Source: Patescibacteria group bacterium
GTDB lineage: Bacteria > Patescibacteriota > Patescibacteriia > UBA2196
DNA: 64,000 bases
Direction of reading: 5' to 3'
NCBI GenBank assembly: GCA_028748975.1
Contig: JAQTPI010000004.1
Location: 14,734-78,733, forward strand
Part shown: one piece after another, positions 42,583-64,000 of the stretch
Numbering within the stretch: position 1 is the stretch's first letter
Layout: every line of letters begins with the position of its first letter
Notes under the pieces: generated by a model
The model's database searches: none
Seen by the model: the letters and a program-made list of their open reading frames with translations, nothing else
Told to the model about the DNA's origin: nothing
Program-made: the position numbers and the translations under genes

Positions 42583-42750
42583 AATAATCTAATAATCTAA
42601 TAACGGATAATAAGTAACTAGTAATAAGTAATAGAGAGAACCAGAAATAAGGATATAGGAATATGGGGATATAAGGAAATAAAATTGTTGAATTGTTAAA
42701 GGGAAATAAAAAAGCGGCCATGATGATGACCGCGTGAAGATCGGATTGAA

Positions 42751-43026: not shown

Positions 43027-43059
43027 AGACCTCCTCCTTTGTGGTAGTGGTTTGTAAAA

Positions 43060-44946: not shown

Positions 44947-44974
44947 GAAAGCCGATAAACGTTTATCGGCTTTC
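44947..44974. promoter_or_regulatory. 28-bp perfect palindrome gaaagccgataaacgtttatcggctttc, immediately upstream of the -35 element of the giant-gene promoter.
   Basis: Direct reading. A possible operator, or the terminator of upstream transcription. Confidence 0.5.
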
Positions 44975-44984
44975 AAAATTTTAT

Positions 44985-45013
44985 TTGACTTTTTGGTTTT
45001 TTTGCGCTATAAT
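44985..45013 (+). promoter_or_regulatory. Sigma-70 consensus promoter TTGACT-17-TATAAT heading an about 290-nt leader before giant gene 45306.
   Basis: ttgactttttggtttttttgcgctataat. The same architecture is seen at 53368. Confidence 0.6.
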
Positions 45014-45305: not shown

Positions 45306-48300
45306 ATGTTCCGTTGTCAAAATTACCATGCTCAAAAGACAGAAAACCACGCTCAAGAAAAGAGTCGTGGTTTTATTTCTTTAACCGAGGCGGCGGAGCT
45401 ATGCACTTACTCACAGGAATATCTATCACTTTTGGCCAGACGGGGGGAACTTCGGGCGCAGAAGTTTGGCAACAACTGGTTTACTAAAACTAAATGGCTG
45501 AAAAAATACGTGGCAGAACACGCCGAAGGCACCATCCTTAATGGCAAGGGAAAATTTTTGGCGAAAGAAAAGATGGCCATGGATTTTAGGAGTTTTAGAG
45601 AAGAAGTTGAGGATTTGATTATGACAGCGAAGAAAAAAACAGTAGCGGTTGGCAGAGGCGGATTGGTGGCCGCGGTGGCATTAGCAATGGTGACCGGAGC
45701 GATTTTGGTCAAACCAAATTATGTGAGAGATTTTGCGCTGACGGAAATTAAATTGGCGCGCATTGGAGTTGGTGAAATTAAAAATATTTTGTGGAGCGAT
45801 GGCGTGATTCGGTTTGGAGTACAGATGAAAGAGGTGGTGCTGGGCATGAAGGAAGATTTTTTAGTAGCTGATAATTTATCGTCTGACCCTCTCCAAACTT
45901 CCTCCCTAGCAAGGGGAAGAGCTTACGGACTAGTGGCGGGAGCAAAGACCGATGAAATTTGGAAAAATTTTGTTGGTAAACTTAATCGAATAAAGATTTT
46001 GAATGTCAACATGGCGCAAAATTTTGAAAATTCCGATCAGGAAATTTATTTGGTACATAATTATTGGCAAAAAATTGGAGGACTGGCAGATAATTTCATT
46101 CCGATTTTTTCTTTTGTAAAAAGAGAGAGCTCACAAATTATCGATGGCGCGGCAAAAATTATTGGCAAAGCCGGAGAGAGAATTGATCGCTCGACCGCTA
46201 ATTTTGGCGGAAAAATTGGCGAGTGGTTTTCATCTTTCCAAAAAACAGAATGGGATCCACAATTGTTAAGTCAGTTAGCAAAGAAAACCCAAGAGACACA
46301 GATTGTTTATCAAACGAATAACATAATCAACAACACAACTTTGGTCAGTGGAAATAAAACAACTGCCGGGCCGGGCGTAATTGACACACAGGGAACAACC
46401 GGCATTAACGGCGCAACTGGCAAAACTGGCAGCCAAGGGCCACGCGGTGAAAAAGGTGAAACCGGGCCACAAGGATTACAGGGAATACAAGGACCAGCCG
46501 GTATCTGTGGTGGAACATGTTCGGGTAGTGGCGGTTCGGTTACCAATATTTACAATGTGGGCGTGCAAGGCGCCACGGCCCATGATGGCGCGGGTAGTTC
46601 GCTGGCCACTAAATATTTGGGCGCAGGCGAACTCTCGGTTTCCGGCAACACCAGCTTAGTTGGCGTCTTGACAGTGGGGGGCGGCGCTTCTTTTAGCAGT
46701 GGCGTGTCCATTGCCGGCATCTTGAATGGCGGCAACGCGACTTTTGGCGGTGTTTCCATGGCCACATTGAATGCCACAACCACCAATGCTGACAGTCTTT
46801 ATATTTTTAATAATGCCACGACCACGGGCGCGCAATATATCGGCGGAGATTTAACTGTGGCTGGTACTGCGGTTTTCACTGGTGGCAGTTCTTTCAATTC
46901 CATCACGACGACTGATACGGCCTACATTGGTGGCAGAAGTTTTTTGATGGGCAACGTCGGCATCGGCACCACAAATGCTACGGCCACCCTGCTTGTTATT
47001 AGCGACCAATATGAAGGCGCAAAATTCGTAGTGGCCTCATCCACGGCTTTGGCTACGCCGAGTTTGTATGTTGATAAAGGAGGCAACGTAGGCATTGGCA
47101 AAACTAATCCCGAATTTAAATTGGATGTTGCGGGAATAATAAATGCCACCTCTTTGTATGTTGATGGCAGTCCCTATGTTGGTAGCCAATGGACAACAGC
47201 TGTTAATGATATTTATTATAATACTGGTAATGTAGGCATTGGCATTACTAACCCAGCTGCTTTGTTTGAAATCGCCACAACCACAACTGACTGGGCCGCG
47301 GGAACTCGTCCTTTAATGCGCGTGGCCACGAAGACCACGGAGGCGTTGTATGTGGGAGCGAGCGGGAATGTGGGAATTGGGACGACCGTGCCGACATCCA
47401 CTTTGCAGGTGGCTGGTAATTTCAATATCACCACCACTTCGGCTTTGACGACTAATCAAAGTGTTTTCTTTGTGAACAATGCGACGAAGAACGTGGGAAT
47501 TGGCACCACCGCGCCAGGAGCTAAATTAGAAGTCAATGGCTCAATCCTTCCAAGTTCAAGTTTGGCCAATGATTTGGGAAGCGGAACTCGCTATTATAAC
47601 AATGGCTATATTTATACACTTGATCAGGGTGGCGGCGTTATTCAAAATACTACTTATATAAAATCTCAAGGCAGTTTGGGTATATTTCCTTTTAGCGGCG
47701 GCACCACCGCAACTTTAAGAATTGGCTCCTTGCCAGGCCAAGGCACAACTTATTCTTATAAAGATATTTATTTTGACACAGCGGATGTTAATAGAATGTA
47801 TATTGCCAATGCGGGCAACGTCGGCATCGGCACGACTAATCCACAGGGCGCATTGTCCGTGATGAATGGTAATGTGGGCATTGGCACCACCAATCCCGGC
47901 GCTTTATTTGAAATCGCTACGACCACGACTGACTGGGCCGCGGGAACTCGTCCTTTAATGCGCGTGGCCACGAAGACAACAGAAGCTTTTTATATCGCGG
48001 CAAGCGGAAACGTCGGCATTGGGACGACGAATCCGCAATACAAATTTGATATTGCTGGCTATGCTTCTTCTACCCAAGATATTTACGCGGCGAACCTTGG
48101 TTATAATGAAGGCATGTTGGAAGACCCAACCATTATTGACGCAACCGGTGCGGCAATTAATATTTCAGCAGCTTATGTTTTAATCCGTTCCAGTAGTGAT
48201 TGGACTGGTTATAAACTAGAAAGACATTTGGTGCCGGCAAATACCGCTTTAGCTTTAACCGATAATGATCTTAACTACGTTTATATTAATTATAATAGCG

Positions 48301-51300
48301 GTTCGCCAATTTACGCCGCTACCACCAATCGTGATGTAATTAATAACTCCAATGCCGTGCCAGTATCAAGAATTATGATGACTTCCGGCAATATTGAATA
48401 CAAAATTAATTATGGCGCGATTGGTAAATCAGTGGCCATCCGCAATTTTGACCGCGTGATGCGCACCCGCGGCATAACCGGCATTGAAAGAGAAAGCGGC
48501 TTAGCCATTTCTGAAAGTGCTTCTCGTGTTTTGTCTGTTACTTCGGGTTACGTCTGGTTTGGCATGGATAGAATTACAATTGATGCCATGACTGTCGGCA
48601 CTGGCGGAGCCACGGCAGAAGTTTGGTATCATTCGGGCGGCAATTGGGTTGCTTCTTCCACGCCGACTTATGAACATTTAAGTTATGATAATGGTACAAA
48701 TTTAACCACGCTTACCGCCAACCGTTACGCCGTGAACTGGGTTTTTCGCAATGTGGCCAATGGAGCCGAAATTGATATTATTTTGGGTTCTGGTGATTAT
48801 ACTTTAGCCCAAGCTGAAGCCAGCATGCTACCATCTTTGCCAGAAGAGGTTACTAATTTTTATGCTTTGGTTGCTAGAATTATTATTAAGAAAAATAACA
48901 CAGTGGCTTACGCCATTGAAAATGAAGCAGATTTTTCTTTCCGGCAGGCCGCGGTAACCATTCATAATGATTTGTCTTCAATTCAGGGTGGCACCACAGG
49001 CGAGTATTATCACTTAACCGCGTCCGAACAAATAGAACTGAACGGCTGGCTGGATGATGCCATTTTGACTTCCACTGGTGGTTTAAGTGTTAATTCCGCC
49101 ACTACCACGGGCTCATTTTATTTTCCCGGCGGCGTAGTTATGGAAAACGGTAATGTGGGAATTGGAACAACAGTGCCGACTTCCACCTTGCAGGTGGCTG
49201 GTAATTTTAATATCACCACCACTTCGGCTTTGACTACAAATGAAAGTGTTTTCTTTGTGAACAATGCAACAAAGAATGTGGGAATTGGGACGACAACCCC
49301 CCTAACTTCATTAAGTGTTCAGGGAGCGCCGGGAAAGCCAGTAATGAACATTGCTTCTTCCACCGGAGCTTCATTACTATATGTGGGTGAAGATGGAAAG
49401 GTCAATATTGGTGGTGAATTTACAGGGGCATACAAATCATCATTAAATGTAACAGGTAATGCGGTTGTGACCGGTATCATTTATGGCCCGAGTTATGGGG
49501 CAACAATTAATATGTCCACCGGCAAGTTAACAAACACCAGTTCGGCAATGGAATTTGATTGGACTAACGGCTTATGGTCTACTTATCGCACTAACATTAC
49601 TTTGTATCCTTACGGGGCATATGATGAAGGCGGGGGAAAAATTATACTTAAAGGCAATGTTGGCATCGGGACGACAAATCCACAAGGTGCCTTGTCGGTG
49701 ATGAATGGTAATGTGGGCATTGGCATGACGAATCCTATAGCAGTATTTGAAATTGCTACCACCTCCAATGATTGGGTTGGTGGGAGTAATGTTCCTTTAA
49801 TGCGGGTGTCTACCAAAACGACGGAAGTTTTCTATATAAATGCTACGGGCAATGTCGGCATCGGGACAACTGCACCTTTGGCAAAACTTAACGCTTCCTC
49901 CACCACGGCGCAGTTAAGATTAACCAATGGCGAAACTGTCAGCACTAATTTTACTGATTTTAATGTTCTCTCAGCCGGTGATTTGATTATTGACCCACAA
50001 GGCACGGCTACGACTACTTTTGTGCGGAGTAATCTGAAAGTGGAGGGAAATGCGACGACAACAGGAAGTTTGGTGGTAGGCAATCCGACTGGCGGCGGCA
50101 TGGGTGCCGGTACAATTAATGCCGAACACACCCTTTATGTGAATGGCGCAGATTACGCGGAATATTTTTTAACTAATGATGTTGACTTGCAACCAGGCGA
50201 AGCAGTTTGTATTGATGTCACTAATGACAAAGCGGTTAAAAGATGCTACCGTGGCGCTGACCCGGACATCATTGGTATCGTTTCTACTAAGCCGGCGCTT
50301 GTTGGTAATAATCAAGAATTTGACGGGGAAACCGTGATTGTCGGTTTAATCGGCCAGGTGCCAGCTTTTGCTTCCGTTGAAAACGGAATTATTCGGCCGG
50401 GCGATTCTTTAACTTCGGCTTCCTCCACCCCGGGCTATTTAATGAAAGCGAGCGCGGGCGATTCCACCGTGGGCGTGGCTTTGACCGGACTTCAAAATGG
50501 CACTGGTGGTATTAATGTTTTAATTTCCAGAAGGAATAAATCTTTGACCGTGGAACAAGTGGAAGAACAGGTGACGAAGCGCGTGGCCGACATGAAAATT
50601 GAGGATGAAGTGAACATGATGGTCTCGGACGCCGTGAGGACACTGGGTGTTGATGAACAAATTAAACTTTTGGATTTGAAAGTGGTGGAGTTGGAAGAAA
50701 AAGAGAAGCTAGCGGTTAAATCATTTGACGAGGTTACAGCCAATAATTTAAAAATTATTACTTTAGCTGAAATAGAAGAATTAAAAGCGAAAAATATTAT
50801 GACGGAAAAGATAACCGCTGATATGGCTCAAGCCACAACTGGCAATTTCCAAGAATTGGTGCTCGGGACAAGTGAAGAGAGAATAGAGAATAGCGAAGAG
50901 CAGGCTGCAACGACGGCGACGACAACCAATGAAGGGGAAAGAGAGAAGAGCGAAGAGTTATTGGTAAACAACAAACAAGTGCGGATTACGGTGATTGACG
51001 ATCCAGATGATAGTGAAGTCAGAATTAAAATCTCCGGCGGGGCGGAATTTGGCGGCACGGTTAAGGTGGTGAATTTGGAAGTGGGTGGTAAAATTACAAT
51101 TAAGGGCGGGGCGGAATTTTTGGGTGAAGCTACTTTCAGAAATAATTTGAATCTGGAAAGTGCTTTAACCCGAACCTATCAAGAAAAGAAAGATGAAATG
51201 TTAAAAATTGGCGACGCGGTTTATATTTCCGGCGACAATGAAGTGGCCAGAGCTTTTGCCGACATTGTTGACGGAAGCGGCATGTTTAAACCAGCCATAG

Positions 51301-51938
51301 GCATAGTAATTGGGTTTGAGGATAAAAATACGGGCGAAACGAAATCCCTTGTTGCCGGCGCTCCGCGGGACAACATCACTGTGAGGGTTGCAATTGGCGG
51401 CACGATTGGCGGATTTAGTAACCTTTTGCCGGGCGTGACCTACTATTTATCTGATGTGGAAACCGCGATTTTGGCTAATAAGACTACCGCCGAGATTGGT
51501 GACGGTGAATTTAGTGCCATTAGTTCGCTGACCAATTCTCCGGCGCAAGAAGTCGGCGTCTTTTTCCAGCCACTGGCAGTGGCCGAATCCACCAGCACCT
51601 TACTAATTATGCCTTCGCTTGTGTATCAGGAATACAACAAAGAAATGAGTTTAGCGCCAGCGGAATACGAACCAATTTATGTAGAGAATTTAAATTCGGA
51701 GATTAACAACCAGCCAGTTTCACCAAGAGTGGAGGAACAGCCAATAATAGATAATCCACAGTCAATCACTGACAGCACGCCAGCAACAACCACCGACGCA
51801 ATTACGGCCACTTCCACTCCGGTGATTGAAGAAATTACACCACCAGTCACAGAAGAAATCGTGTCGGCAGAGGAGCCGTTGGTAATAACCGAGGCGCCGC
51901 CAGTGGGGGAGGTGGTAGTGGAGGTACCGGTGGAATAA
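45306..51938 (+). CDS. Giant (2210 aa) fibre-like surface protein: N-terminal excisionase-type HTH-like region, one TM helix, a collagen Gly-X-Y tract, a long array of tail-fibre-like GNVGIGTTNP repeats and a C-terminal intramolecular-chaperone (peptidase S74-like) region.
   Basis: N-terminus ISLTEAAELCTYSQEYLSLLARRGELRAQKFGNNWF resembles the HTH_17 pattern. TM helix VAAVALAMVTGAILV. Collagen-like GPRGEKGETGPQGLQGIQGPAG. More than 15 repeats of GNVGIGTT.P...L.V / ALFEIATTTTDWAAGTRPLMRVATKTTEA. C-terminus ...DYAEYF...DPDIIGIVSTKPALVGNN.... Confidence 0.8.
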   Translation: MFRCQNYHAQKTENHAQEKSRGFISLTEAAELCTYSQEYLSLLARRGELRAQKFGNNWFTKTKWLKKYVAEHAEGTILNGKGKFLAKEKMAMDFRSFREEVEDLIMTAKKKTVAVGRGGLVAAVALAMVTGAILVKPNYVRDFALTEIKLARIGVGEIKNILWSDGVIRFGVQMKEVVLGMKEDFLVADNLSSDPLQTSSLARGRAYGLVAGAKTDEIWKNFVGKLNRIKILNVNMAQNFENSDQEIYLVHNYWQKIGGLADNFIPIFSFVKRESSQIIDGAAKIIGKAGERIDRSTANFGGKIGEWFSSFQKTEWDPQLLSQLAKKTQETQIVYQTNNIINNTTLVSGNKTTAGPGVIDTQGTTGINGATGKTGSQGPRGEKGETGPQGLQGIQGPAGICGGTCSGSGGSVTNIYNVGVQGATAHDGAGSSLATKYLGAGELSVSGNTSLVGVLTVGGGASFSSGVSIAGILNGGNATFGGVSMATLNATTTNADSLYIFNNATTTGAQYIGGDLTVAGTAVFTGGSSFNSITTTDTAYIGGRSFLMGNVGIGTTNATATLLVISDQYEGAKFVVASSTALATPSLYVDKGGNVGIGKTNPEFKLDVAGIINATSLYVDGSPYVGSQWTTAVNDIYYNTGNVGIGITNPAALFEIATTTTDWAAGTRPLMRVATKTTEALYVGASGNVGIGTTVPTSTLQVAGNFNITTTSALTTNQSVFFVNNATKNVGIGTTAPGAKLEVNGSILPSSSLANDLGSGTRYYNNGYIYTLDQGGGVIQNTTYIKSQGSLGIFPFSGGTTATLRIGSLPGQGTTYSYKDIYFDTADVNRMYIANAGNVGIGTTNPQGALSVMNGNVGIGTTNPGALFEIATTTTDWAAGTRPLMRVATKTTEAFYIAASGNVGIGTTNPQYKFDIAGYASSTQDIYAANLGYNEGMLEDPTIIDATGAAINISAAYVLIRSSSDWTGYKLERHLVPANTALALTDNDLNYVYINYNSGSPIYAATTNRDVINNSNAVPVSRIMMTSGNIEYKINYGAIGKSVAIRNFDRVMRTRGITGIERESGLAISESASRVLSVTSGYVWFGMDRITIDAMTVGTGGATAEVWYHSGGNWVASSTPTYEHLSYDNGTNLTTLTANRYAVNWVFRNVANGAEIDIILGSGDYTLAQAEASMLPSLPEEVTNFYALVARIIIKKNNTVAYAIENEADFSFRQAAVTIHNDLSSIQGGTTGEYYHLTASEQIELNGWLDDAILTSTGGLSVNSATTTGSFYFPGGVVMENGNVGIGTTVPTSTLQVAGNFNITTTSALTTNESVFFVNNATKNVGIGTTTPLTSLSVQGAPGKPVMNIASSTGASLLYVGEDGKVNIGGEFTGAYKSSLNVTGNAVVTGIIYGPSYGATINMSTGKLTNTSSAMEFDWTNGLWSTYRTNITLYPYGAYDEGGGKIILKGNVGIGTTNPQGALSVMNGNVGIGMTNPIAVFEIATTSNDWVGGSNVPLMRVSTKTTEVFYINATGNVGIGTTAPLAKLNASSTTAQLRLTNGETVSTNFTDFNVLSAGDLIIDPQGTATTTFVRSNLKVEGNATTTGSLVVGNPTGGGMGAGTINAEHTLYVNGADYAEYFLTNDVDLQPGEAVCIDVTNDKAVKRCYRGADPDIIGIVSTKPALVGNNQEFDGETVIVGLIGQVPAFASVENGIIRPGDSLTSASSTPGYLMKASAGDSTVGVALTGLQNGTGGINVLISRRNKSLTVEQVEEQVTKRVADMKIEDEVNMMVSDAVRTLGVDEQIKLLDLKVVELEEKEKLAVKSFDEVTANNLKIITLAEIEELKAKNIMTEKITADMAQATTGNFQELVLGTSEERIENSEEQAATTATTTNEGEREKSEELLVNNKQVRITVIDDPDDSEVRIKISGGAEFGGTVKVVNLEVGGKITIKGGAEFLGEATFRNNLNLESALTRTYQEKKDEMLKIGDAVYISGDNEVARAFADIVDGSGMFKPAIGIVIGFEDKNTGETKSLVAGAPRDNITVRVAIGGTIGGFSNLLPGVTYYLSDVETAILANKTTAEIGDGEFSAISSLTNSPAQEVGVFFQPLAVAESTSTLLIMPSLVYQEYNKEMSLAPAEYEPIYVENLNSEINNQPVSPRVEEQPIIDNPQSITDSTPATTTDAITATSTPVIEEITPPVTEEIVSAEEPLVITEAPPVGEVVVEVPVE
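45343..45380 (+). promoter_or_regulatory. Intragenic hairpin plus U-tract (aaaaccacg-N14-cgtggtttt atttct) 38 nt into the giant ORF; candidate attenuator, conserved in the paralogue at 53779..53816.
   Basis: The same 9-bp stem and trailing T-run occur in both genes within about 88%-identical 5' coding sequence. Confidence 0.45.
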
Positions 51939-52171
51939 TTTAATAATTCAACTTTTCTTGTTTACTTGCGCACCGGGCGGCAGGGGAGTATAATATATTA
52001 GTAACAGAATAACGAAGTAATAAAGGGAAATAGGGATATAAGGATATAAAAAATAAAATTATTTTATTATCAATATAAATTATTTTACGAATTCATATAT
52101 TCGCCCGCCTTGCCCGCTTCGCAGCGAGGCGAGCCGACGAGGCAGGTACAATTCGTAATTCGTAGGATTCT

Positions 52172-52612
52172 ATGGAAGAACAACAACCAATAAAAAACTA
52201 TTCTTATAAAATTACCACGAGTGGCTGGGTGGTGATTGGTATTATAGTTTTGGCGGTGATTGGCAGCGTTTTATTTTTTATCAGCAAAAAAAGCGGAGGC
52301 TTGAACAAAAACAGTTCTGATTGGCAAGCAATCTTTTTGTCCAATGGGCAAACATATTTTGGACAGGTAGTTTCTGAAAACAATGACAGCGTGATCATCA
52401 GAAATGTTTATTATTTGGTAGGCATGACAAGCCCGCAAGAAATAAGCGAAACAGATAAAAACAAAGATTTTTCTTTAATTAAGTTAGGCAGTGAAGTTCA
52501 TGGACCAATTGATGAAATGCGCATCAATCGAAATCATATTTTGTTTGTAGAAGATTTGCGCGCTGATTCCAAAATCGTGAAAGCGATTGACGAGTATCAG
52601 AAGAAGAAGTAA
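52172..52612 (+). CDS. Small membrane-anchored hypothetical protein (146 aa).
   Basis: One N-terminal TM helix (WVVIGIIVLAVIGSVLFFI), followed by a strong terminator. Confidence 0.55.
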   Translation: MEEQQPIKNYSYKITTSGWVVIGIIVLAVIGSVLFFISKKSGGLNKNSSDWQAIFLSNGQTYFGQVVSENNDSVIIRNVYYLVGMTSPQEISETDKNKDFSLIKLGSEVHGPIDEMRINRNHILFVEDLRADSKIVKAIDEYQKKK

Positions 52613-52641
52613 TAAGTAATAAGGAAAATAAAAAACAAAAA

Positions 52642-52664
52642 AACGAGCAAGACTCGTTTTTTTG
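52642..52664 (+). terminator. Rho-independent terminator.
   Basis: acgag-caaga-ctcgt followed by ttttttt. Confidence 0.8.
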
Positions 52665-52743
52665 TTTGAAGATATCTATCCTTTGTTACCCTGTTACTCT
52701 GTTACTCTGTTACTTTGTTATTATGTTATTTTTTATTTATTAG

Positions 52744-52800
52744 TTACGAGATCCCTCGACTCCGGCCGACTATTGTCGGCCTTCGCTCGGGATAAACTAA
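52744..52800. repeat. Family-A palindromic element.
   Basis: acgagatccctcgactccggccgactattgtcggccttcgctcgggataaactaa. Confidence 0.85.
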
Positions 52801-53137
52801 AAAAATACAAAACAATTCCCAAATAAATACTAAAAAAATTAAGAAAATTAAATCAAAACAATTCAATAAATAAATAAAACAATAATTCTAATTATTGGTG
52901 AATAAAAAATATAAAATAAATTAAAATAAATAATAAAAAATACTAAAATTTGAGAGAAAAACACCTGATTTTTAAAAAGTAGGGGAAAAAGATGGCCATT
53001 TTTTGGCCCTAGGATGCCCGTTGAAAGGTTTTTTGATGGAGGACACCAAAACTACCATTAAAAAACGCGCCAGGGAAAAATTGAGGGAAGTTTTTTAGTA
53101 AAACAAGATCCTTTGCTCTGAGTTTTCGGAGTTTAGG

Positions 53138-53176
53138 ACGCCGTTGTTTTATTGCAACAAAACAACGGCGTTTTTG
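53138..53176 (+). terminator. Strong rho-independent terminator (13-bp stem).
   Basis: acgccgttgtttt-attgcaac-aaaacaacggcgt followed by ttttt. Confidence 0.75.
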
Positions 53177-53367
53177 TGGATAAGTGCCATCTTTTTTTTA
53201 TAAAAATTTAAAAAACGAGAAAAACGGTTGTGTATAAGTGGAGTGCGACAAAAATTGATTTATAAAATATTTTCTGGAAACAATGCCCAAAAAACGTATT
53301 TTACGACTATTTGGCGCCTAGTTGATGCATATTGCATATCTGGAAGGTAATATCGGATAGAAATTGA

Positions 53368-53396
53368 TTGACTTTTGGTATTTTTCGCGATATAAT
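53368..53396 (+). promoter_or_regulatory. Sigma-70 consensus promoter TTGACT-17-TATAAT heading the leader of the second giant gene.
   Basis: ttgacttttggtatttttcgcgatataat. It parallels 44985. Confidence 0.6.
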
Positions 53397-53741
53397 TAAT
53401 ACAGGAAAGCTAAATTTTTAGGAACCAACACCAGATATGCGACGCCTCGGACGCGTCCGGAAACCCCAACAGGTTTTCTAAAACTGGTTTTGGTAAATTT
53501 TACTCCGCTTTGAGTCAGGCAAACAAAAAAGCCCACTCGAGCCAGGCAATAGGGTTTTGGAAAGCGTAAATTAATTAGGATTTTTAATTTACTTGGTGCC
53601 AAAAGCACGAGGTGAGCTTGTTTTAATTATAGCATAATTTTTAAAGCAAGGCAAACGGCCTATATATGTATATATATTAATATATAAAAAATAAAATATA
53701 AAATATAAAAAATTTATATTGAAAATTGAAAATTAACTTCC

Positions 53742-56700: not shown

Positions 56701-59700
56701 CGGATGGCAGTTTGGAAGTTCTAAATGCTGATAGCGCGCAATTACGTCTAAGCCAAGCCAATGAAGTTTTTTACGCTGATTTCCAGGTGGATAATACCGG
56801 CGATTTGCTTTTGAACATGAGCGACAACACTGGCCAAGGGCAATTAATTTTGGCCAACGAAGACACCATCGCGATTGGCGGCGTGGCGGGACAAATTTAC
56901 AATGCCATCGCCAATGATGCCACAAGCATGGGGCATGGCTTGAATACAGACACAGATTTATACATTGGTGGCAAATTGGAAGTTGATGACAATGTTTTTT
57001 TTGATGGCAACGTAACAATTGCCGGCGACCAGACCGTGGTGGGCACAACGGCTTATGAAAGCAATGTGGACATGCAGAATAATTTAATTTTGAATGTAGG
57101 CCATGCCAATACTGATTTCACTACTGGCGGCGGACTTAATTTGGCCGGTGATTTGGCCGTCAATTCCGGTAATCTTACTTCCTCTGGCAATTTGACTTTG
57201 AATCCGACCGGCACTTTGAATTTGGGTGGGGCAAATACGACAGTGATTTCTACACCTAACACGGTGGCAACTTACAACGTCAATGGCACTGGATTGACCG
57301 CGGTTAATATCGCGGTAGCCAACGTTAACCCGGCCATTTTGAATTTTGGCACTTCGGCCGCGGGGAACGACATTAACATCGGTGGTTCGACAGCTACGGT
57401 GGATTTGGAAAATGGCACTGTGTATGTTATTGGTGGCAACATAGGAATTAATACCACCGCGCCGACTTCCACCCTGCAAACCATTGGCAATTTTTCCATT
57501 GCCACCACTTCCGCTCTCGGTTTTAACAAGCGCGAGGTTTTCAGCGTCAATAGCACTAATCATTTTGCCACCACGACCGTGAAAGATTATTTCCAGGTGG
57601 TGCAGGCAAACGAGGCGACAAGTTTGTTTGTTGATAAAGGAGGAAATGTCGGCATCGGGACAACTGCGCCGAATAATATTTTAGATGTAAATGGAACAGC
57701 CAACATTCCAATTATACGGCCCGGCTCGGTCACGTCTTATGTCGGAGGAGTTATTAATCTTAGCACCTTAAGTTTATCAGACACAGCGGCTGCCGAAGCA
57801 AGTTTAAATTGGAGAACTGGCACTTGGACCACTTATCGCCAAAATATGACGATAACTCCTTACGGGGCTTATGACGAAGGCGGGGCTGGAAAAATTTCTT
57901 TTATAGGCAACGTCGGCATCGCCACCACCAACCCGACCGCATTTTTGGAAATTTCTACCACGACTAATGATTGGGTAGGAGCAGACCGCGCGCGTCCTTT
58001 AATGCGCGTGGCAACTAAAACCACTGAAGCTTTTTACATCGCGGCGAGCGGAAATGTGGGGGTGGGGACGACCAATCCTTTAGGATTACTTCAAGTTGGA
58101 GACAATAATGCAACTCTTGGTAATAAATACGCTCTTTTTTCCAACAATGTCGGAGGAAATAATCCATCAAGTGTTGTTGGACTTGCTATTGGGTGGAATA
58201 AATCCAATGGGCAAGGTGAATCTAATATTATTTTTAACACAACTGGAGGGGGTACAGCACCAGGACTTGCGATCGGCGACTTTAATGGCGCAACTTACAA
58301 AGAAGATATGCGCATAGATCAAAATGGCAACGTCGGCATCGCCACCACTAATCCGACCGCATTTTTGGAAATTTCTACCACGACTAATGATTGGATAGGA
58401 GCAGACCGCGCGCGTCCTTTAATGCGCGTGGCGACAAAAACTACCGAAGCTTTCTACATCGCGGCATCGGGTGCGGTTGGAATTGGCACCACGGATCCAA
58501 GCTGGACTGGTTTTGATGTTAATAAATCTGGTTTCTATTTTCATAACGGTGCCACCGCCTTTATCTATAACAATGGCGTTAATACCGGCTTTAATAGTGG
58601 CACCACCCCAGGTTCAAAAGTATCAATTGCGGGAAATTTATCAGTGGGAAGCACTTTTTATTCTGTTGCCGCGCCAACTAATGGAGCAATTATTGAAGGC
58701 AATGTCGGCGTTGGGACGACCGCGCCCTCTGCCTTACTTCACGCTTCTTCCACCACGGAACAATTACGATTATCCAATGGCAATGTCGCTTCCACTAACT
58801 TCACATCTTTTAAAGTTCTCTCTGCCGGTGATTTAATCATTGACCCGCAGGGAACAGCGACTTCCACCGTGATTGGCAGTAATCTGCAAGTGGAAGGCAA
58901 CGCCAGCACGACTGGCGCATTGTATGTTGGTGGGCATTTTAATGTGGTTGGCATCGCGGCTTTTACCGGCGGCGCGAGTTTCAATTCCATCACTACCACG
59001 GATACGGCCTATATTGGCGGAAAAAGTTATTTTGGCGGTAACGTTGGCATTGGCGCGACCGCGCCACTGGCCAAATTGGATGTGCGCGGCGACGTTTACA
59101 TTGGCGCGGGCGCGGAAATTTACACCAATGGCGGCTATGAATCTGGTGGAGTGACCACTGTTAGCACTCTGCAAAACAATATGTATGTTTGGCAGGGCGG
59201 CACGGGCAATGTTACGCCTTCAGTGGAAACGACCATTGTCCACACCGGCACCAATTCGCAAAAAATAGTAGTGACTGATGACGGCACTTCTCTTTCTGAT
59301 GTCCGCGCGGCTACCGCTTCGTCCAATTACAACGCGGTCGTGGGCGATGTTTTCACTTACAGTTTTTGGGTTTATTCCAGCGTGGCTATCACCAACGCGC
59401 AAGTGGCTTTTGCCAGTATTGGGCAGAGCGGCTGGGGAACAGCGGTAAGTTTTAGCGTGCCAACCATCAATACTTGGACTAAAATTTCCGGCATGGTGAC
59501 TTGCAATGCGACCGTGGCCAATAATGGCACCAACATTCAGGCAAAAATCGGCGACACTTTAAGCGGCGGAACCGGCACGGTATATTTTGATGATTTTTCA
59601 ATTTATCGGACGGGCTTGGCTTTGGTCAATGCCAACGCGGCCGTGGCGGGCGGACAACAAAATTCTCCGGTTGTGAGATGGTCGGGTTATGGTTGGAAAA

Positions 59701-62700
59701 CAGATGCCACGGCTGGGAGCCAAGCAGTGGATTTCCGAAGTTATGTGGTGCCGGTGCAGGGAGCGGCCGCGCCAACCGGTTATCTGACTTTTGAATCTGC
59801 CATCAATGGCGCGACTTATGGCAATACCATGAATTTCACTTCTGGTGGAAATTTGGGCATCGGCACCACTGCGCCAACTTCCACCTTGGCAGTTTATGGA
59901 AATTTCAATGTGCAGAATGCCAGCAATGGTACTAGTAATTTATATGTTAATCCAACAAGCGGTAATGTTGGCATTGGGACGACGGGGCCGACACAAAAGT
60001 TAGATGTTAACGGTAATATGAGAGTTGGGAGCGGAATAATTTATGGCCCAGCCACGACCGAATATCTTTCTTTTGATAGCACAAATGGTTCTTACCTTGT
60101 TTCTAATGGAACTTATGTTAGAGCAGCGCCAGCTTCTGATTTAGTATTTGTTAATAATAATAACGAGAGCATGAGAATAAAACTAGGTGGTAATGTTGGT
60201 ATTGGCACTAATGCACCAACTGCTTTATTTGAAATCGCCACCACCACAAATGACTGGCCGGCCGGTGTTCGTCCTTTAATGCGAGTGGCCACGAAGACGA
60301 TCGAAGCGTTGTATGTTTCCGCGGCGGGAAATGTGGGGATTGGGACGGCGACGCCGGAGCAAAAGTTGGATGTAGCCGGTAGCACTCGTTTGAGTTCTTA
60401 TTTACAATTAAGAGATTTTGACGCTGGCAGTTGGGATGGCGTAACTCTTGGTTCAACTATTATTTCTAGAGATTATGCCACGGTGTTTTGGAACGGCGGA
60501 GTGATAGTTGGTGGATATGCCAACGACGCCACACCAGCCGCTTACAGCGCTGGTGGCGCGTTTTTGTCGCAAGGCCCGACCGCTTTGGCCGTGAATTCTG
60601 GCAATGTCGGTATTGGAATAACAAACCCGGTCGGGCAATTTCAAGTTTCCACCACCACCATGTTTGCTTCAGCTTCTGGCACAGAACCGAGAGTGGGTAT
60701 TGGCACTTCCGCGCCTTCTGTGCCTTTGCATGTTTCTAAAACAGGGCTGGCAGCCGATGGCAATAATTGGGTTGGTTATTTTTTAACTCCAAATGTTGTC
60801 ACTGATGCCCACACAGTAAATCTTTTGCTTGGAAAGACAACTGCCACCGGAGCTTCCGCAGCTTTAAGTTACAAGTATGACACAACTTCCGGCGATGAGG
60901 GTTTTGGCATCGCTTTGTATGGCGACGCTTTAGGCAGCGGTTTTTTCCAAAGAAAGGGCGGCAATGTGGGAATTGGGACATTAACACCGGGCGCAGAATT
61001 AGTAGTGGTTTCCGATACTTACGGAGCGCCCAAATTTATGGTTTCCTCATCAACCACTGTAACCACGCCGAGTTTGTATGTGGCCAATACCGGCAACGTC
61101 GGCATCGGAAATACCAACCCAACCCAAAAATTAGAGGTGACCGGCAATCTTATGATTCCAAATGGAAACGCTTATTATTCTAAAGATAGTTCGGGAAACG
61201 CTATACCATTAATTCAGTTAAATGGTTCTAATAATTTGCGCATGCTGGCTGGCTACAATACCCAAATAGAAATTTATAATACCGCGCAGACTTACGCTTT
61301 GATGGCAATAAAAAATAACGGCAATGTCGGCATTGGTACCACTAATCCGACTGCCTTATTCGAAGTTTCTACCACGACCGCGCATTCCACCATTTCTAAT
61401 CGACCAATGATGCGGGTAGCCACGGGTACGACAGAAGCATTTTTTGTTGATAGATTTGGCAATGTGGGGATTGGACAGATTAACCCGCAATACAAACTTG
61501 ATGTCGCTGGCAATTTGAATTTGAACGCCACTTCCACCATTTACATGAACTCGTTGCCGGCGTTTAACGCTTCTTCTACCAGTCTTTCTGTCTCGGCTGG
61601 CACGCAGGCGGGCAATGCTTTGCTTGATAGCGGAATACGTAATGTTTTTGTGGGCTATCAGGCCGGCTATTCGGCGACCACTTCTGATTATAATGTTGGC
61701 GTCGGTTATTTGGCATTAAAGAATACCAACAGATCTGGCGGTGGCGACCAAGGCGGCGACAGAAATGTGGCCGTGGGGGATACTTCCATGGATGCCAACA
61801 CTTATGGCGGATATAACACAGCGGTGGGTTTTGATTCTTTAGGCGCTCTTATAAGCGGTAATCAGAATACGGTGGTTGGCAATTCCGCGTTGTATCAAAA
61901 TACCACTGGTTCTCTTAATGTCGCCATGGGTTATGTGGCTGGTTATCTAAACAAAGGCACTGGCAATGTTTTTTTGGGCACAGGCAGTGGCACGACCGAA
62001 CAGTTTGATACTTCAAACTATTCAGTGGCCATTGGCTATTACGCCAAAACTTTTGGCAGTAATCAGCTTTCCATTGATAATGCTTCCACCACCGCGCCAT
62101 TGATTTTTGGTGATTTTTCCACGCGCCGAGTTGGCTTAGGCACGACCGCGCCAGTGGCGATGTTTGAAATTTCAACTACGACTGATTGGGTGGCGGGAGT
62201 TATGCCTTTGATGCGCGTGGCAACTAAAACCACCGAAGCTTTCTATATCGCGGCGACTGGCAATGTAGGAGTGGGGACGACCGCGCCTGATGCCAAACTT
62301 TCAATCTTGAATGGCTCAGGATATCTTTTGTCTTCCAAAGACACGGCCGGTACCACTCGTTTTGCTATTAATGCTTTGCATTCTAATCCTTATTACTATG
62401 ACATAGCGTCCACTAATTATGATTTGCGAATATCTTCTTATTTGACTGGCGGCACTGGCGGCAATATCCAGTTTCAAACCAACAGCGTGGCAGGCGCGGT
62501 AGAGAGAATGCGCATTAATCCATATGGTAATGTCGGTATCGCTACCACCAACCCGACTGCGTTTTTGGAAATTTCTACCACGACAACCGACTGGGTTGCG
62601 GGCGTGCGTCCTTTGATGCGCGTGGCCACGAAGACGACGGAGGCGCTGTATGTTTCCACGGCGGGGAATTTGGGAATAGGATCAACAAACCCATCTTTCA

Positions 62701-64000
62701 AGACCGAAATTATTCATAATTCAAGCGGAACAAGTTTTGCAGGGGCGGTTGCAGATTTTGGTTTGGGTCTAATTAATATAAACGGCGCTGCTAATACTTG
62801 GAGCAATATTTCATTTGCCCAAGCCGGAAGTGGTTCAGTGAAAGCGAGTATTGGAACGCAATTTCCAACAAACAATGCCGATGTGGTAATTGGAACATGG
62901 AATTCCGGGGCTGGACTAACAGAGAAAATGAGAATTACTGGTCTTGGCAACGTCGGCATCGGGACAACTGCACCGACTTCTACTTTGCAAACCATCGGCA
63001 ATTTTTCCATTGCCACCACTTCGGCTCTCGGCTTTACCAAACGCGAGGTTTTCAGCGTCAATGGCACGAATTCTTTTGCCACGACCAGCGTGAAAGATTA
63101 TTTTAAAGTAGTGCAGGATAATGAGGCAACCAGTTTTGGTGTGGAAAAGAGCGGTTATGTTGGAATCAACACCACAAATTATGGGGTGGGTTATCAGAGA
63201 TTAGAAGTTAATGGCGGCGCGGCTTTGCGCGCCGGCGGGTATTTATATTTGCAGACAAGCGATGCCCAATCATCTTTCGGCATTGTTAATTTGGGTAGTG
63301 GCGGTTCGGACAAAGCAATTTTTACAGGCAATAATTTAACAATGGGCGTTGGCCAAATTGCGCCGACAGCCATGATCCATGCTTCCACCACTGATGAAGC
63401 CACGGTGGGCATGAGAATTAATTTATCCGGCACGGCGCCGACGGCCAATGCTTTTGACATTCAAAGCCAGGCGGGCGCGATTTTGACTGCTTTTACGGCG
63501 AGCGGTGGATTAATCATGAATGTGGCTTCTTCCACCGTGCTTAATGTTCAGGATGGCTCGGGCAATAAAGTTTTTGTGGTTGATTCGGATGCTTCCCCGG
63601 CCATTTTGATTTATGAAGACGCTGGCGTGAAAAATATTTCTATTTCTCATGATGGCACTAACGCGGTCATCGTGGCTTCTTCCGGTGAAATTCAAATCGG
63701 CACGGCGGGCAACGATGTTTATGTCGGCACCGCGGGCACGGCTTCCAATTTGGTGTTTGAAGAATCTTCCAGCATTTTGGGCCAGGGCGGCAACACTATT
63801 ACTTTAGGACAGTCCGGCGATCATTTTAATTTGGCAGTGACCGGCGTAAATTATTGGTTTAAAAATATTGTTTCCACTTCCACTAATTTATATTTATACG
63901 CATCGTCTACCAGCGAAAGCGTAATTGTGATGGAGAATCCGGCGGATAATAAAAATTTGCGCGTCTTTATTGAAGGCGCCATCACTACGGGCTCTTCCAC
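53742..64000 (+). CDS. Second giant fibre-like surface protein, longer than 3400 aa and 3'-truncated by the window. It is a paralogue of 45306..51938, with the same N-terminal HTH-like/TM module, a collagen Gly-X-Y tract and many GNVGIGTT-type repeats.
   Basis: The frame was checked open at more than 8 positions through to the window end. N-terminus MLRRQNYHAQKTENHAQEKSRGFISLSEAAKLCTYSQEYLSLLARRGELKAQKIGRNWFTKTDWLKKYI. Collagen-like GPRGEKGEKGETGPQGLQGLQGLQGIAGPAG. It is not in the ORF track because no stop occurs before the window end. Confidence 0.8.
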   Translation, partial: MLRRQNYHAQKTENHAQEKSRGFISLSEAAKLCTYSQEYLSLLARRGELKAQKIGRNWFTKTDWLKKYIEDHPADLNGNIKGRLLEEEKLKKIIHKKRFKNLNVLGEVGATTRVMKKKMAGARTKVLLATMLMVLLVGVVLIKPNYVKDFATMEIKLAQIGTNEFKRIFWNENAAKFEAPEQETAKQTMEKIGGKKIVAGAKISEVWKNLISQFNQVKNLNLSIAKNFDKAEQEIYLAHYNWQKTGERIFSWLEKKNFAINLGDFKMFGKSGEIRDWGIVGAMKKILASANKIVGEAGGSATELASNIGDKIGEWLSSFQKTEWDSRLLIQLAKRKSETTQIVYEGDWINQIGQGEAGQAGASGKPGATGATGKIGSQGPRGEKGEKGETGPQGLQGLQGLQGIAGPAGASGGTSITNVYNVGVPGTTAHDGAGSSFAAKYIGAGELSVSGNTSLNGSLTVQGGTSFNSAVNIAGILNGGNAVFSGVTMNTLNATTTNIDFARIVDGRITTLNATTTNIDTLQVFGNATTTGVQSIVGQLKVATSTLDEYYKFGVGGPVYIAGSLYHEGNATTTGTGVFSNSLAVATTTHPYTLNIGGTGYFSDGLMIGGYATTSNLTVQGNATTTGSHYIGGDLTVARASAFLSGASFNSITTTDTAYFGGNLTVVGATDLQDNVFDSLGDFTIADNLMVSGNATTTGSHYIGGDLTVARASAFLSGASFNSITTTDTAYISGRSFLMGNVGIGTTAPTSTLAVYGNFNVQNASNGTSNLYVNSTSGNIGIGTTGPLQKLDVNGNLAFGGSRAFGLFGTILDFGRGSSYFTGFNLGVGASSGLFINSNGNVGIGMTNPVYKLEVNGTASTSALYVGTNATTTGVAYVGLALAVATTTSDDFSFQIGAKPSIFQHGVSILGYATTSNLTVQGNATTTGTQYFGGDINMAGAMNQAGGSAALATTTVVGSFTVQDADGNSRFLVNNLTGKVGIGTSGPDGSLEVLNADSAQLRLSQANEVFYADFQVDNTGDLLLNMSDNTGQGQLILANEDTIAIGGVAGQIYNAIANDATSMGHGLNTDTDLYIGGKLEVDDNVFFDGNVTIAGDQTVVGTTAYESNVDMQNNLILNVGHANTDFTTGGGLNLAGDLAVNSGNLTSSGNLTLNPTGTLNLGGANTTVISTPNTVATYNVNGTGLTAVNIAVANVNPAILNFGTSAAGNDINIGGSTATVDLENGTVYVIGGNIGINTTAPTSTLQTIGNFSIATTSALGFNKREVFSVNSTNHFATTTVKDYFQVVQANEATSLFVDKGGNVGIGTTAPNNILDVNGTANIPIIRPGSVTSYVGGVINLSTLSLSDTAAAEASLNWRTGTWTTYRQNMTITPYGAYDEGGAGKISFIGNVGIATTNPTAFLEISTTTNDWVGADRARPLMRVATKTTEAFYIAASGNVGVGTTNPLGLLQVGDNNATLGNKYALFSNNVGGNNPSSVVGLAIGWNKSNGQGESNIIFNTTGGGTAPGLAIGDFNGATYKEDMRIDQNGNVGIATTNPTAFLEISTTTNDWIGADRARPLMRVATKTTEAFYIAASGAVGIGTTDPSWTGFDVNKSGFYFHNGATAFIYNNGVNTGFNSGTTPGSKVSIAGNLSVGSTFYSVAAPTNGAIIEGNVGVGTTAPSALLHASSTTEQLRLSNGNVASTNFTSFKVLSAGDLIIDPQGTATSTVIGSNLQVEGNASTTGALYVGGHFNVVGIAAFTGGASFNSITTTDTAYIGGKSYFGGNVGIGATAPLAKLDVRGDVYIGAGAEIYTNGGYESGGVTTVSTLQNNMYVWQGGTGNVTPSVETTIVHTGTNSQKIVVTDDGTSLSDVRAATASSNYNAVVGDVFTYSFWVYSSVAITNAQVAFASIGQSGWGTAVSFSVPTINTWTKISGMVTCNATVANNGTNIQAKIGDTLSGGTGTVYFDDFSIYRTGLALVNANAAVAGGQQNSPVVRWSGYGWKTDATAGSQAVDFRSYVVPVQGAAAPTGYLTFESAINGATYGNTMNFTSGGNLGIGTTAPTSTLAVYGNFNVQNASNGTSNLYVNPTSGNVGIGTTGPTQKLDVNGNMRVGSGIIYGPATTEYLSFDSTNGSYLVSNGTYVRAAPASDLVFVNNNNESMRIKLGGNVGIGTNAPTALFEIATTTNDWPAGVRPLMRVATKTIEALYVSAAGNVGIGTATPEQKLDVAGSTRLSSYLQLRDFDAGSWDGVTLGSTIISRDYATVFWNGGVIVGGYANDATPAAYSAGGAFLSQGPTALAVNSGNVGIGITNPVGQFQVSTTTMFASASGTEPRVGIGTSAPSVPLHVSKTGLAADGNNWVGYFLTPNVVTDAHTVNLLLGKTTATGASAALSYKYDTTSGDEGFGIALYGDALGSGFFQRKGGNVGIGTLTPGAELVVVSDTYGAPKFMVSSSTTVTTPSLYVANTGNVGIGNTNPTQKLEVTGNLMIPNGNAYYSKDSSGNAIPLIQLNGSNNLRMLAGYNTQIEIYNTAQTYALMAIKNNGNVGIGTTNPTALFEVSTTTAHSTISNRPMMRVATGTTEAFFVDRFGNVGIGQINPQYKLDVAGNLNLNATSTIYMNSLPAFNASSTSLSVSAGTQAGNALLDSGIRNVFVGYQAGYSATTSDYNVGVGYLALKNTNRSGGGDQGGDRNVAVGDTSMDANTYGGYNTAVGFDSLGALISGNQNTVVGNSALYQNTTGSLNVAMGYVAGYLNKGTGNVFLGTGSGTTEQFDTSNYSVAIGYYAKTFGSNQLSIDNASTTAPLIFGDFSTRRVGLGTTAPVAMFEISTTTDWVAGVMPLMRVATKTTEAFYIAATGNVGVGTTAPDAKLSILNGSGYLLSSKDTAGTTRFAINALHSNPYYYDIASTNYDLRISSYLTGGTGGNIQFQTNSVAGAVERMRINPYGNVGIATTNPTAFLEISTTTTDWVAGVRPLMRVATKTTEALYVSTAGNLGIGSTNPSFKTEIIHNSSGTSFAGAVADFGLGLININGAANTWSNISFAQAGSGSVKASIGTQFPTNNADVVIGTWNSGAGLTEKMRITGLGNVGIGTTAPTSTLQTIGNFSIATTSALGFTKREVFSVNGTNSFATTSVKDYFKVVQDNEATSFGVEKSGYVGINTTNYGVGYQRLEVNGGAALRAGGYLYLQTSDAQSSFGIVNLGSGGSDKAIFTGNNLTMGVGQIAPTAMIHASTTDEATVGMRINLSGTAPTANAFDIQSQAGAILTAFTASGGLIMNVASSTVLNVQDGSGNKVFVVDSDASPAILIYEDAGVKNISISHDGTNAVIVASSGEIQIGTAGNDVYVGTAGTASNLVFEESSSILGQGGNTITLGQSGDHFNLAVTGVNYWFKNIVSTSTNLYLYASSTSESVIVMENPADNKNLRVFIEGAITTGSS

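Follow-up and report, generated by a model that had tools for sequence, protein, structure and literature searches.

Cultivated Patescibacteria are episymbionts, and the recognition of and attachment to their hosts are largely unexplained; in the literature found, no factor other than type IV pili has been tested (PMC11623550), and large surface proteins are listed only as candidates for adhesion (PMC13059738). Two giant genes, gene 1 (45306..51938) and gene 2 (53742..64000), are described here from a stretch of 64,000 nucleotides (nt) of a metagenome-assembled genome of a Patescibacteria group bacterium (contig JAQTPI010000004.1). This whole stretch is referred to as the window; all coordinates are positions in it, and genes and domains are on its forward strand unless another strand or locus is given. 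Both genes encode an N-terminal winged-helix domain with a helix-turn-helix (HTH) of the excisionase (HTH_17) type, a single transmembrane (TM) helix, a collagen-like tract and a very long region of tail-fibre-type repeats, which in gene 1 is followed by a C-terminal cassette with a predicted auto-chaperone domain of the phage phi29 gp12 (Peptidase_G2, hereafter G2) type. The reading that we consider probable, with moderate confidence, is that of membrane-anchored homotrimeric host-attachment fibres with tethered winged helices of a DNA-binding type. Trimeric tail-fibre-like adhesins with an auto-chaperone are known; what sets the present proteins apart is the putatively cytoplasmic HTH_17-type domain combined with a signal-anchor, together with an extended G2 cassette in a protein that is cellular and predicted to be secreted.

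The mosaic adhesive trimer (MAT) fibres of Bdellovibrio bacteriovorus, represented by Bd2133 (one of 21) and Bd3182, are surface homotrimers with exchangeable tips that serve in prey handling; they constitute a paralogous family with exchanged tips, and many carry a C-terminal self-cleaving chaperone (PMC10769870). They share with gene 1 and gene 2 the condition, predicted in our case, of surface homotrimeric beta-helix fibres of a bacterium living on bacteria, and the GNVGIGT-repeat regions of both proteins match the solved beta-helix of Bd2133, a fibre region with capping-loop repeats. In the Bd2133 fragment, ~370 aa extend over ~142-150 A; scaled roughly, this would give the present fibres a length of >=50 nm. 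MAT proteins of ~1000 amino acids (aa) have a signal peptide and a conserved beta-rich N-domain of ~130 aa, whereas gene 1 and gene 2, with 2210 and >3419 aa, have an HTH domain, a TM helix and an unrelated juxtamembrane region; the N-domain, known from its description and with no sequence set beside the two genes, was not recognized in them. The MAT chaperone is of the Peptidase_S74 family (SDxxxK motif) and that of gene 1 of the G2 type, no collagen tract is seen in the available MAT description in contrast to the tracts found here, and the MAT fibres come from a diderm proteobacterium (PMC10769870).

In the phi29 gp12 pre-neck appendage and in the marine podovirus Dpo31, the motif (S/A)DYAEYF opens a domain placed after a trimeric beta-structured fibre, with a role as trimerisation chaperone (PMC4690869), an arrangement that gene 1 resembles. 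Domain D4 of Dpo31 is a gp12-like auto-chaperone that is cleaved off and lost from the mature tail spike, and gp12-type self-cleavage reportedly involves an ATP site (PMC13317679). Gene 1 differs in the ~450 additional residues after the domain (coiled coil, domain and acidic tail) and in being a predicted membrane-anchored cellular protein, which would fold outside the cell, where ATP is lacking; its sequence identity to these proteins is just ~22%, and its own cleavage is hypothetical. Peptidase_S74 proteins such as endosialidase, T5 pb1 and MYRF likewise possess a C-terminal trimerising chaperone that self-cleaves, and MYRF, in addition, unites in a single chain a triple beta-helix, a TM segment and a domain that binds DNA. 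Gene 1, however, has neither an S74 profile match nor SDxxxK, and the DNA-binding domain and chaperone of MYRF are on the same side of the membrane, so that cleavage frees the factor, whereas here they would be on opposite sides.

Bacillus BclA and Streptococcus Scl share with the two genes a Gly-X-Y triple-helix stalk with a trimerising globular domain, and a weak PDB match to BclA was obtained; they differ in anchoring and chaperone, and collagen is here a minor part (14-20 triplets) of a mainly beta-helical fibre. On the cytoplasmic side, ToxR and CadC bind DNA while tethered, the HTH of RodZ binds MreB, and RacA is a MerR-like chromosome anchor. ToxR, CadC and RodZ have a cytoplasmic HTH, a single TM helix and an exterior domain, as predicted for gene 1 and gene 2, and RacA is among the fold matches of the winged helix. 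Nevertheless, the HTH of all four is of a family other than excisionase/HTH_17, and ToxR, CadC and RodZ have a small sensor domain instead of a fibre of 2000 to >3300 aa; shared functions would be analogies only.

The two genes and their N-terminal region

Gene 1 is complete and encodes 2210 aa (NCBI MDD5290010.1, annotated as 'hypothetical protein'). Gene 2 starts at the ATG in position 53742 and runs past the end of the window, with its 3' end outside and its frame open for 3419 codons, that is, at least 3419 aa. With the local base composition, the chance of open frames this long was ~1e-58 for gene 1 and ~1e-90 for gene 2. Both genes are on the same strand and occupy 26.4% of the window; these values agree with the initial annotation of the sequence, which had given sizes of 2210 and more than 3400 aa and more than 25% of the window. 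The same annotation had described the genes as paralogues with starts ~88% identical. Their paralogy was confirmed by shared N-terminal sequence and shared upstream DNA, and the identity value was correct for the first ~60-70 aa (7 differences in the first 60 aligned residues) but not beyond: it was 55% when ~170 aa were compared and 52% for ~345 aa. The exteriors showed ~25-31% identity with many off-diagonal repeat matches, and the DNA of the gene starts, upstream DNA included, was 82-85% identical over 200-270 nt. As judged by these comparisons, gene 1 and gene 2 are diverged tandem paralogues on a chromosome of the Patescibacteria (candidate phyla radiation, CPR).

A promoter-like site, TTGACT-17-TATAAT (11/12), precedes each gene, at 44985..45013 for gene 1 and 53368..53396 for gene 2, with implied leaders of ~290 and ~345 nt, respectively. 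The leader regions (44985-45305 and 53368-53741) share the blocks AGGGTTT.GGAA, TTAATTA, ATTTACT and AAAAGCACGAGG; since promoter-like site and leader blocks are common to both genes, the duplicated unit includes the regulatory region. An Rfam scan of both leaders gave no match, and these unusually long shared leaders are a possible regulatory RNA or operator region. At the gene starts, a block of 65 nt is 100% identical (45316-45380 and 53752-53816), unlike the adjoining HTH-coding DNA, which differs by synonymous changes every ~6-10 nt. The block contains two 13-nt direct repeats, ACCAYGCTCAARA, spaced 21 nt, which in gene 1 lie at 45325-45358. Within the window this 13-nt repeat is confined to the two genes, and 0 of 100 shuffles reached 4 matches. 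The 65-nt block may have arisen as a tract of gene conversion, may serve as a substrate for recombination, its two copies being direct repeats at a distance of 8.4 kb, or may be a candidate binding site.

The winged-helix domain comprises aa ~23-80 in both proteins (45372..45545 in gene 1 and 53808..53981 in gene 2). The excisionase-like character that the initial annotation had assigned to the region before the TM helix was upheld through homologues and fold, although the direct matches to Pfam HTH_17 (PF12728, excisionase/MerR-like winged helix; gathering score 27 bits) were below the cut-off: gene 1 scored 15 bits and gene 2 20.6 bits, or 23.4 bits, still under 27, when the 60-aa segment of gene 2 was isolated. 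The alignment spans profile positions 2-49 of 51. HTH_17 was matched by 20 of 23 aligned homologous segments (best E 1.3e-10), and relatives found by the N-terminal profile described below scored 29.5-36.1 bits, above the cut-off. The AlphaFold model of the 60-aa core, with a predicted local distance difference test (pLDDT) value of 88, consists of strand-helix-helix, a beta-hairpin wing and a final helix, and its top Foldseek matches were RdfS excisionase, TraN, BldC, Pukovnik Xis, lambda gpNu1, RacA and CarH, with probability ~1 and TM-scores of 0.65-0.70. The assignment is convincing because of the above-threshold homologues and the fold, and not because of the scores of gene 1 and gene 2 alone; according to sequence and model, the domain, although divergent, truly belongs to the HTH_17 superfamily and is excisionase/MerR-like.

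When gene 2 aa 1-173 was searched against 5.8 billion proteins, the motif YSQEYLSLLAR.G.L.A.K.GRNW.T was found elsewhere in two settings. Small Patescibacteria proteins of 141-158 aa with an HTH and a TM helix constitute the first; in the second, the motif is located C-terminally in Fic proteins that bear the annotation PF12728+PF02661, these Fic-HTH_17 proteins being direct matches. No close relatives of the N-terminal region were found in genome or metagenome collections.

A profile of the first ~345 aa of both genes was searched against 1.84 billion representatives clustered at 50% identity, and matched 2498 clusters at E <= 1e-3 and 793 at E <= 1e-10. In the best 145 of these 2498, the HTH was N-terminal in all; one TM helix followed in 110/145, and two or three tandem HTH copies were present in 106/145. 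Among the same 145, 23 were >1000 aa and 12 >2000 aa, with a maximum of 6890 aa. The long relatives bear GNVGIG repeats and/or collagen tracts. An HTH-anchored fibre had been called odd in the initial annotation, and the rarity that this implies does not hold with 2498 clusters matched. From these sequences, HTH and TM helix with a large exterior are a common, unnamed architecture of the Patescibacteria, for which no description was found in the literature on Patescibacteria surface and fibre proteins and HTH domains. The data also indicate that HTH-TM genes tend to cluster, as gene 1 and gene 2 do. Extra small HTH-TM genes were observed adjoining HTH-anchored or G2-type fibre genes in other genomes (L019, 2525-3433; L023, 3612-4454; L040, 6289-7380; L006, 20214-20426).

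Each protein has one hydrophobic helix only, as noted initially, located at aa 118-135 in gene 1 (45657..45710; signal-anchor) and aa 126-142 in gene 2 (54117..54167). The putative cytoplasmic side is basic, with an isoelectric point (pI) of 9.5 for gene 1 aa 1-116 and 10.1 for gene 2 aa 1-121, and the HTH region and linker are strongly basic (pI 9.3-10.1). The remainder is acidic, with pI 4.6 (gene 1) and 4.9 (gene 2), and rich in Gly, Thr, Ala and Asn. These characteristics are consistent with an N-in/C-out signal-anchor (type II single-pass) topology. The helix of gene 1 is followed by a juxtamembrane region (45711..46391, aa 136-362) with blocks shared with gene 2, of which KPNYV.DFA and KIGEW.SSFQKTEWD are conserved; this region of ~220 aa matched no known family in Pfam.

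The exterior fibre and the C-terminal cassette of gene 1

The exterior begins with a collagen-like tract, of 14 Gly-X-Y triplets in gene 1 (46392..46517, aa 363-404; ending in a Cys pair, ICGGTC) and 20 triplets in gene 2 (54804..54983, aa 355-414). For Pfam Collagen (PF01391; cut-off 27.2 bits), gene 2 scored above the threshold (33.2 bits) and gene 1 below it (19.8 bits). In gene 1, the tract is followed by fibre region 1 (46518..48059, aa 405-918), with GNVGIGTT and FEIATTT...RVATKTTEA repeats and matches to the Bd2133 beta-helix and tail-fibre PHROGs, a non-repetitive insert (48060..49058, aa 919-1251), which is a putative globular or ligand-binding domain, and fibre region 2 (49059..50144, aa 1252-1613). 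The fibre region of gene 2 (54984..63998) has non-repetitive inserts at, for example, aa 1783-1956 and aa 2591-2800. GNVGIG-type motifs number 11 in gene 1 and 26 in gene 2, and the FEIATTT...PLMRVATKTTEA unit has 3 and 6 copies, respectively. Phage tail-fibre phrog_9942 was matched by both genes (E 1e-22 and 1e-23) and phrog_18345 by gene 2 (E 4e-19). In PDB, phmmer matched the Bd2133 beta-helix (8ond) over the GNVGIGT motifs (gene 1, E 2e-5; gene 2, E 2.6e-7), with a weaker match of the fibre regions to 8ojn. The combination of collagen triplets and tail-fibre-like repeats reported in the initial annotation is thus supported. The three inserts mentioned had no Pfam family match; that of gene 2 at aa 2591-2800 has, by eye only, a YadA-head-like look.

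DNA repeats, whether within one gene or shared by both, do not exceed 223 nt, and their identity is mostly 70-95%; the longest exact one has 86 nt, and in the best repeat pairs the differences are mainly at third codon positions and without adenine bias. The rapid surface variation by repeat shuffling that had been proposed initially does not agree with these short, diverged repeats and with their lack of the pattern of a diversity-generating retroelement (DGR). A role as DGR target gene was ruled out, since the mismatches are not adenine-specific, and no reverse transcriptase was present among the open reading frames of the window that were scanned. Recent repeat shuffling or assembly collapse is equally unsupported by the length, identity and third-position differences of the repeats.

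The C-terminal cassette of gene 1 comprises a phi29-gp12-type (G2-like) auto-chaperone beta domain (50145..50567, aa 1614-1754), which opens with G-ADYAEYF, a long alpha-helix, predicted as coiled coil (50568..50870, aa ~1755-1855), and a terminal domain (aa ~1892-2110) with an acidic Pro/Glu/Thr-rich tail (50979..51935). It is conserved in relatives, e.g. in L011. From Ala1615 of the motif to the protein end there are 596 residues (beta domain, coiled coil, acidic linker, domain and tail), so gene 1 does not end with the DYAEYF segment, contrary to what had been stated initially; 350-650 residues usually follow the motif in relatives. That segment (DYAEYF...IIGIVST) had been read as an S74-like self-cleaving chaperone, of which the functional class stands but the family does not: Peptidase_S74 (PF13884) gave no Pfam match even at E 10, the SDxxxK motif is absent from both proteins, and the S74 assignment was ruled out.

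The motif GADYAEYF is at aa 1614-1621, and none of its D, Y, A, E, Y and F positions varies among 8 close homologues; for PF11962 (Peptidase_G2), (S/A)-D-Y-A-E-Y-F is taken as the motif at the N-terminal boundary of the released domain, and it also opens D4 of Dpo31. Homologues of the gene 1 G2 core are very many, mostly from Patescibacteria, and 52-72% identical over 141 aa. PF11962 was matched by 12 of 28 homologues (best E 2.8e-10), which are 31-59% identical to gene 1 over the aligned region. A profile matched PBCV-1 P22 at the 'GADYAEMMEW' region (E 3e-11) and, more weakly (E 0.026), the Dpo31 D4 chaperone chain, which opens with GSDYAEYF. The AlphaFold model has pLDDT >90 across the beta domain, with a helix of ~100 aa predicted after it, and the modelled G2 region has the fold of the gp12 C-terminal domain. 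Taken from sequence and model, the C-terminal segment of gene 1 is assigned to Peptidase_G2 (phi29 gp12 type), functionally an intramolecular chaperone of trimeric fibres. A second G2-like domain was considered at aa 1892-2110 and discarded, as no significant similarity to the first was detected.

A scan for the G2 core with one genome per species yielded 308 relatives, and the best 80 of the 308 were examined as loci. These 80 are dominated by Patescibacteria, including Magasanikii-, Kuenen-, Falkow-, Moran-, Kaiser-, Pace-, Peri-/Peregrini- and Saccharibacteria and WWE3. Many of the genes are giant, with >3300 aa upstream of the domain, and their complete N-termini have either an ordinary signal or anchor sequence or an HTH with a TM helix. 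Complete HTH-TM-fibre-G2 genes, each of 1650-2500 aa, were found in six loci (L069, L053, L015, L023, L019 and L045), and one more, in L044, is cut at the N-terminus; L019 and L045 bear a Saccharibacteria label. No match to the G2 core was found by tblastn in 50,697 phage genomes, and contigs of viral metagenomes had only distant G2 relatives, 35-46% identical over ~60 aa.

Other arrangements of these domains were also observed. Among relatives found by the N-terminal profile (P0216, P0142 and P0088), some HTH-anchored giants have several internal G2-like domains, up to 5 copies, and small HTH-TM proteins of 458-590 aa also bear one. Because the G2-like copies can be internal, repeated and also present in small HTH-TM proteins, the domain may serve as a trimerisation node in general and not solely as a chaperone that sits at the end and is cleaved off. 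Furthermore, the C-terminal cassette constitutes a separate gene of ~700-900 aa in L011 (3575-6259, Kuenenbacteria), P0041, P0062, L036, L042, L046 and L059. These separate genes span from 'EGNATTTGSLVVGNPTGGGMGAGT.NAEH..GADYAEYF' to the acidic tail and start with an intein/Hint fragment (Pfam Intein_splicing, E 2.3e-13) ending in '...THNFVANGIFAHNT'; such intein-headed cassettes suggest split-intein trans-splicing of fibre C-termini, or a mobile cassette.

Proposed function and alternative explanations

In the proposed mechanism, each protein would be an N-in/C-out single-pass membrane protein with a very long homotrimeric fibre as exterior, formed by a short collagen triple helix and a long tail-fibre-type beta-helix with GNVGIGTT 'capping' repeats, of the kind known from phage tail fibres and the prey-recognition fibres of Bdellovibrio, and interrupted by non-repetitive inserts, which probably bind ligands. 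The ~600-aa cassette of gene 1 most likely sets the register of the three chains, enabling the fibre to fold, and may then cut itself off at Ala1615|Asp1616. The fibres most likely attach to or recognise the host cell or surface for an episymbiotic ultra-small bacterium, a role proposed because cultivated Patescibacteria are episymbionts and large surface proteins are the usual adhesion candidates. The winged helix would bind DNA while tethered, and trimerisation of the fibre would gather three winged helices under the membrane. For domains of the excisionase type, action as head-to-tail multimers is typical, and the arrangement would connect the base of the fibre with the nucleoid or with specific sites. 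Four features of the domain favour tethered DNA binding, namely its family, its fold, its basicity and the frequency with which it is duplicated in tandem; gene-specific regulation is weakened because the recognition helix is near-invariant across unrelated fusions, and a RodZ-like adaptor is a serious rival.

Several observations weigh against this reading. Concerning the winged helix, the HTH_17 scores of both genes are below the cut-off, the Foldseek E-value is just 0.014 (short domain), and a profile search of PDB with the HTH alignment retrieved no solved structure and only spurious ankyrin matches. The TM helices are short, with 17-18 residues, and the topology was called from hydropathy and charge only. 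Gene 1 itself has no PF11962 match at E 0.01, the internal and repeated G2-like domains of some relatives make an obligatory cleavage doubtful, and the ATP site of gp12-type self-cleavage is hard to reconcile with folding outside the cell. Gene 2 is without a protein record in either database searched, and the source may have annotated it as a partial gene or as a pseudogene. Finally, the almost invariant recognition helix of Fic fusions, 145-aa proteins and giants speaks against operators specific to each gene and would fit a conserved protein partner just as well.

This last point leads to the alternative with the best claim, although we consider it unlikely on balance: the fibre would be the same, and the winged helix would be a RodZ-like adaptor for protein interaction, which positions, clusters or exports the fibres and does not bind DNA. 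The invariance of the HTH core (YSQEYLSLLARRG.L.A.K.GRNW) among giants, 145-aa HTH-TM proteins and Fic fusions is more easily explained by a common partner than by many different operators, the HTH-TM module is joined to very diverse exteriors, and within the 64-kb window only the two fibre genes bear it; for RodZ itself, its cytoplasmic HTH reportedly binds MreB. On the other hand, the domain shares its fold and its family with excisionases and MerR-type proteins, which bind DNA, domain and linker are strongly basic, tandem HTH copies (106/145 relatives) are typical of excisionase-like DNA binders such as TraN, and no partner is known. Retaining DNA binding, it is conceivable but doubtful that the HTH-TM-fibre proteins represent a new class of outside-in coupling, in which assembly, host contact or loss of the fibre is read inside the cell through clustering or release of the HTH; this readout would alter gene expression or nucleoid attachment, and the 65-nt block would be a candidate HTH binding site. 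Thousands of CPR 'hypothetical proteins' would then be membrane-tethered one-component regulators with adhesin-sized sensors. Such a coupling of fibre status to gene regulation had been raised in the initial annotation, as had a recombination handle, which is likewise conceivable. Less likely still is a membrane-tethered transcription factor whose HTH is freed by proteolysis near or within the membrane upon host contact or fibre damage, as in anti-sigma RsgI or, by analogy, MYRF. Such a factor would be suited by a giant exterior that resembles a sensor and has a domain of DNA-binding type on its cytoplasmic side, and autoregulation could act through the shared promoter, the long leader and the identical block with its 13-nt repeats; MYRF is a precedent of a transcription factor with modules for trimerisation and self-cleavage of the tail-spike kind (PMC3742443, PMC3742440). 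Nevertheless, the sole recognisable self-cleaving module is ~1500 residues away and outside, so that a cut there leaves the HTH tethered, neither a signal nor a gene for a site-1 or site-2 protease was identified, the invariance of the recognition helix speaks against dedicated regulons, and in a very small cell a tethered factor can reach DNA without release.

Two further explanations concern the nature of the genes and are both highly improbable. Assembly artefacts (collapsed or chimeric repeats) or pseudogenes could be suspected from the repetitive content, the missing protein record of gene 2 and the many homologues on short, broken contigs, but the frames are open for 2210 and 3419 codons, the repeats are short and diverged, as detailed above, and differ mostly in the third position of codons, and independent assemblies contain this architecture as well. 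An origin as structural genes (tail fibres) of a phage or prophage, to which we give even less credit, would account for the tail-fibre PHROG matches, the gp12-type auto-chaperone, a phage hallmark, and the distant domain relatives on viral contigs. Against it, both proteins have a TM anchor and a putatively cytoplasmic domain, the tblastn search of phage genomes was negative, the viral relatives (35-46% over ~60 aa) are more distant than those of Patescibacteria (52-72% over 141 aa), and the neighbourhood is of housekeeping type and not prophage-like, with no capsid, terminase or integrase genes nearby.

With membrane-anchored host-attachment fibres as the preferred reading, gene 1 and gene 2 are concrete candidates for host attachment, being predicted trimeric, tail-fibre-like structures that are related to the prey-recognition fibres of Bdellovibrio, include modular inserts and have a defined cassette for folding. 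The excisionase-type domain before a signal-anchor, predicted to be cytoplasmic, is a mass phenomenon in Patescibacteria and defines a large uncharacterised class of membrane-tethered HTH proteins; whether nucleoid tether, regulator or adaptor, it would be a general feature of how Patescibacteria build their surface. A gp12-type auto-chaperone in a secreted cellular protein also raises the question of how folding and cleavage would proceed without cytoplasmic ATP.

Transcription units and genomic neighbourhood

A small membrane protein gene of 146 aa (52172..52612), with an N-terminal TM helix, sits between the two giants. Hairpins with a 16-bp stem are located between the MacB/FtsX gene and the gene 1 unit (44943..44978; terminator-like in both directions) and 3' of the 146-aa gene (52633..52667; terminator-like). 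These strong hairpins suggest two transcription units, one with gene 1 and the 146-aa gene and the other with gene 2. In 10 of the 80 genomes, homologues of the 146-aa protein, 29-50% identical, were found downstream of G2-type fibre genes at a distance of no more than 10 kb, and the protein may be an accessory factor of the fibre; its open reading frame gave nothing significant in Pfam.

Neighbour genes are of housekeeping type and encode ArgRS, a Mur ligase, FtsW, LigA, GatA, a DsbA-like protein, Lgt and a ZIP transporter; a pilin of the type IV secretion system (T4SS) type, tRNAs and tmRNA are also present. Directly upstream of gene 1 (38332-44352), genes for HlyD, an ABC ATPase and two MacB/FtsX permeases were observed. 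Near G2-type fibres, HlyD homologues were found in 2 of the 80 loci (L069 and L048) and the full HlyD-ABC-MacB set in only one (L069), in divergent orientation there; because of this rarity, a role of these genes in fibre export is unsupported.

A third giant surface protein of 2068 aa (4102-10308), with fn3, CARDB, DUF2341 and Laminin_G_3 domains, is unrelated to both fibres and is without HTH. A tRNA cluster on the reverse strand (19539-20055) includes an ARAGORN tRNA with undetermined anticodon ('ct') and a tRNA-Asn with anticodon att. In the same cluster, an Rfam tRNA match of 149 nt at 19907-20055, uncalled by ARAGORN, is possibly an intron-containing or otherwise atypical tRNA.

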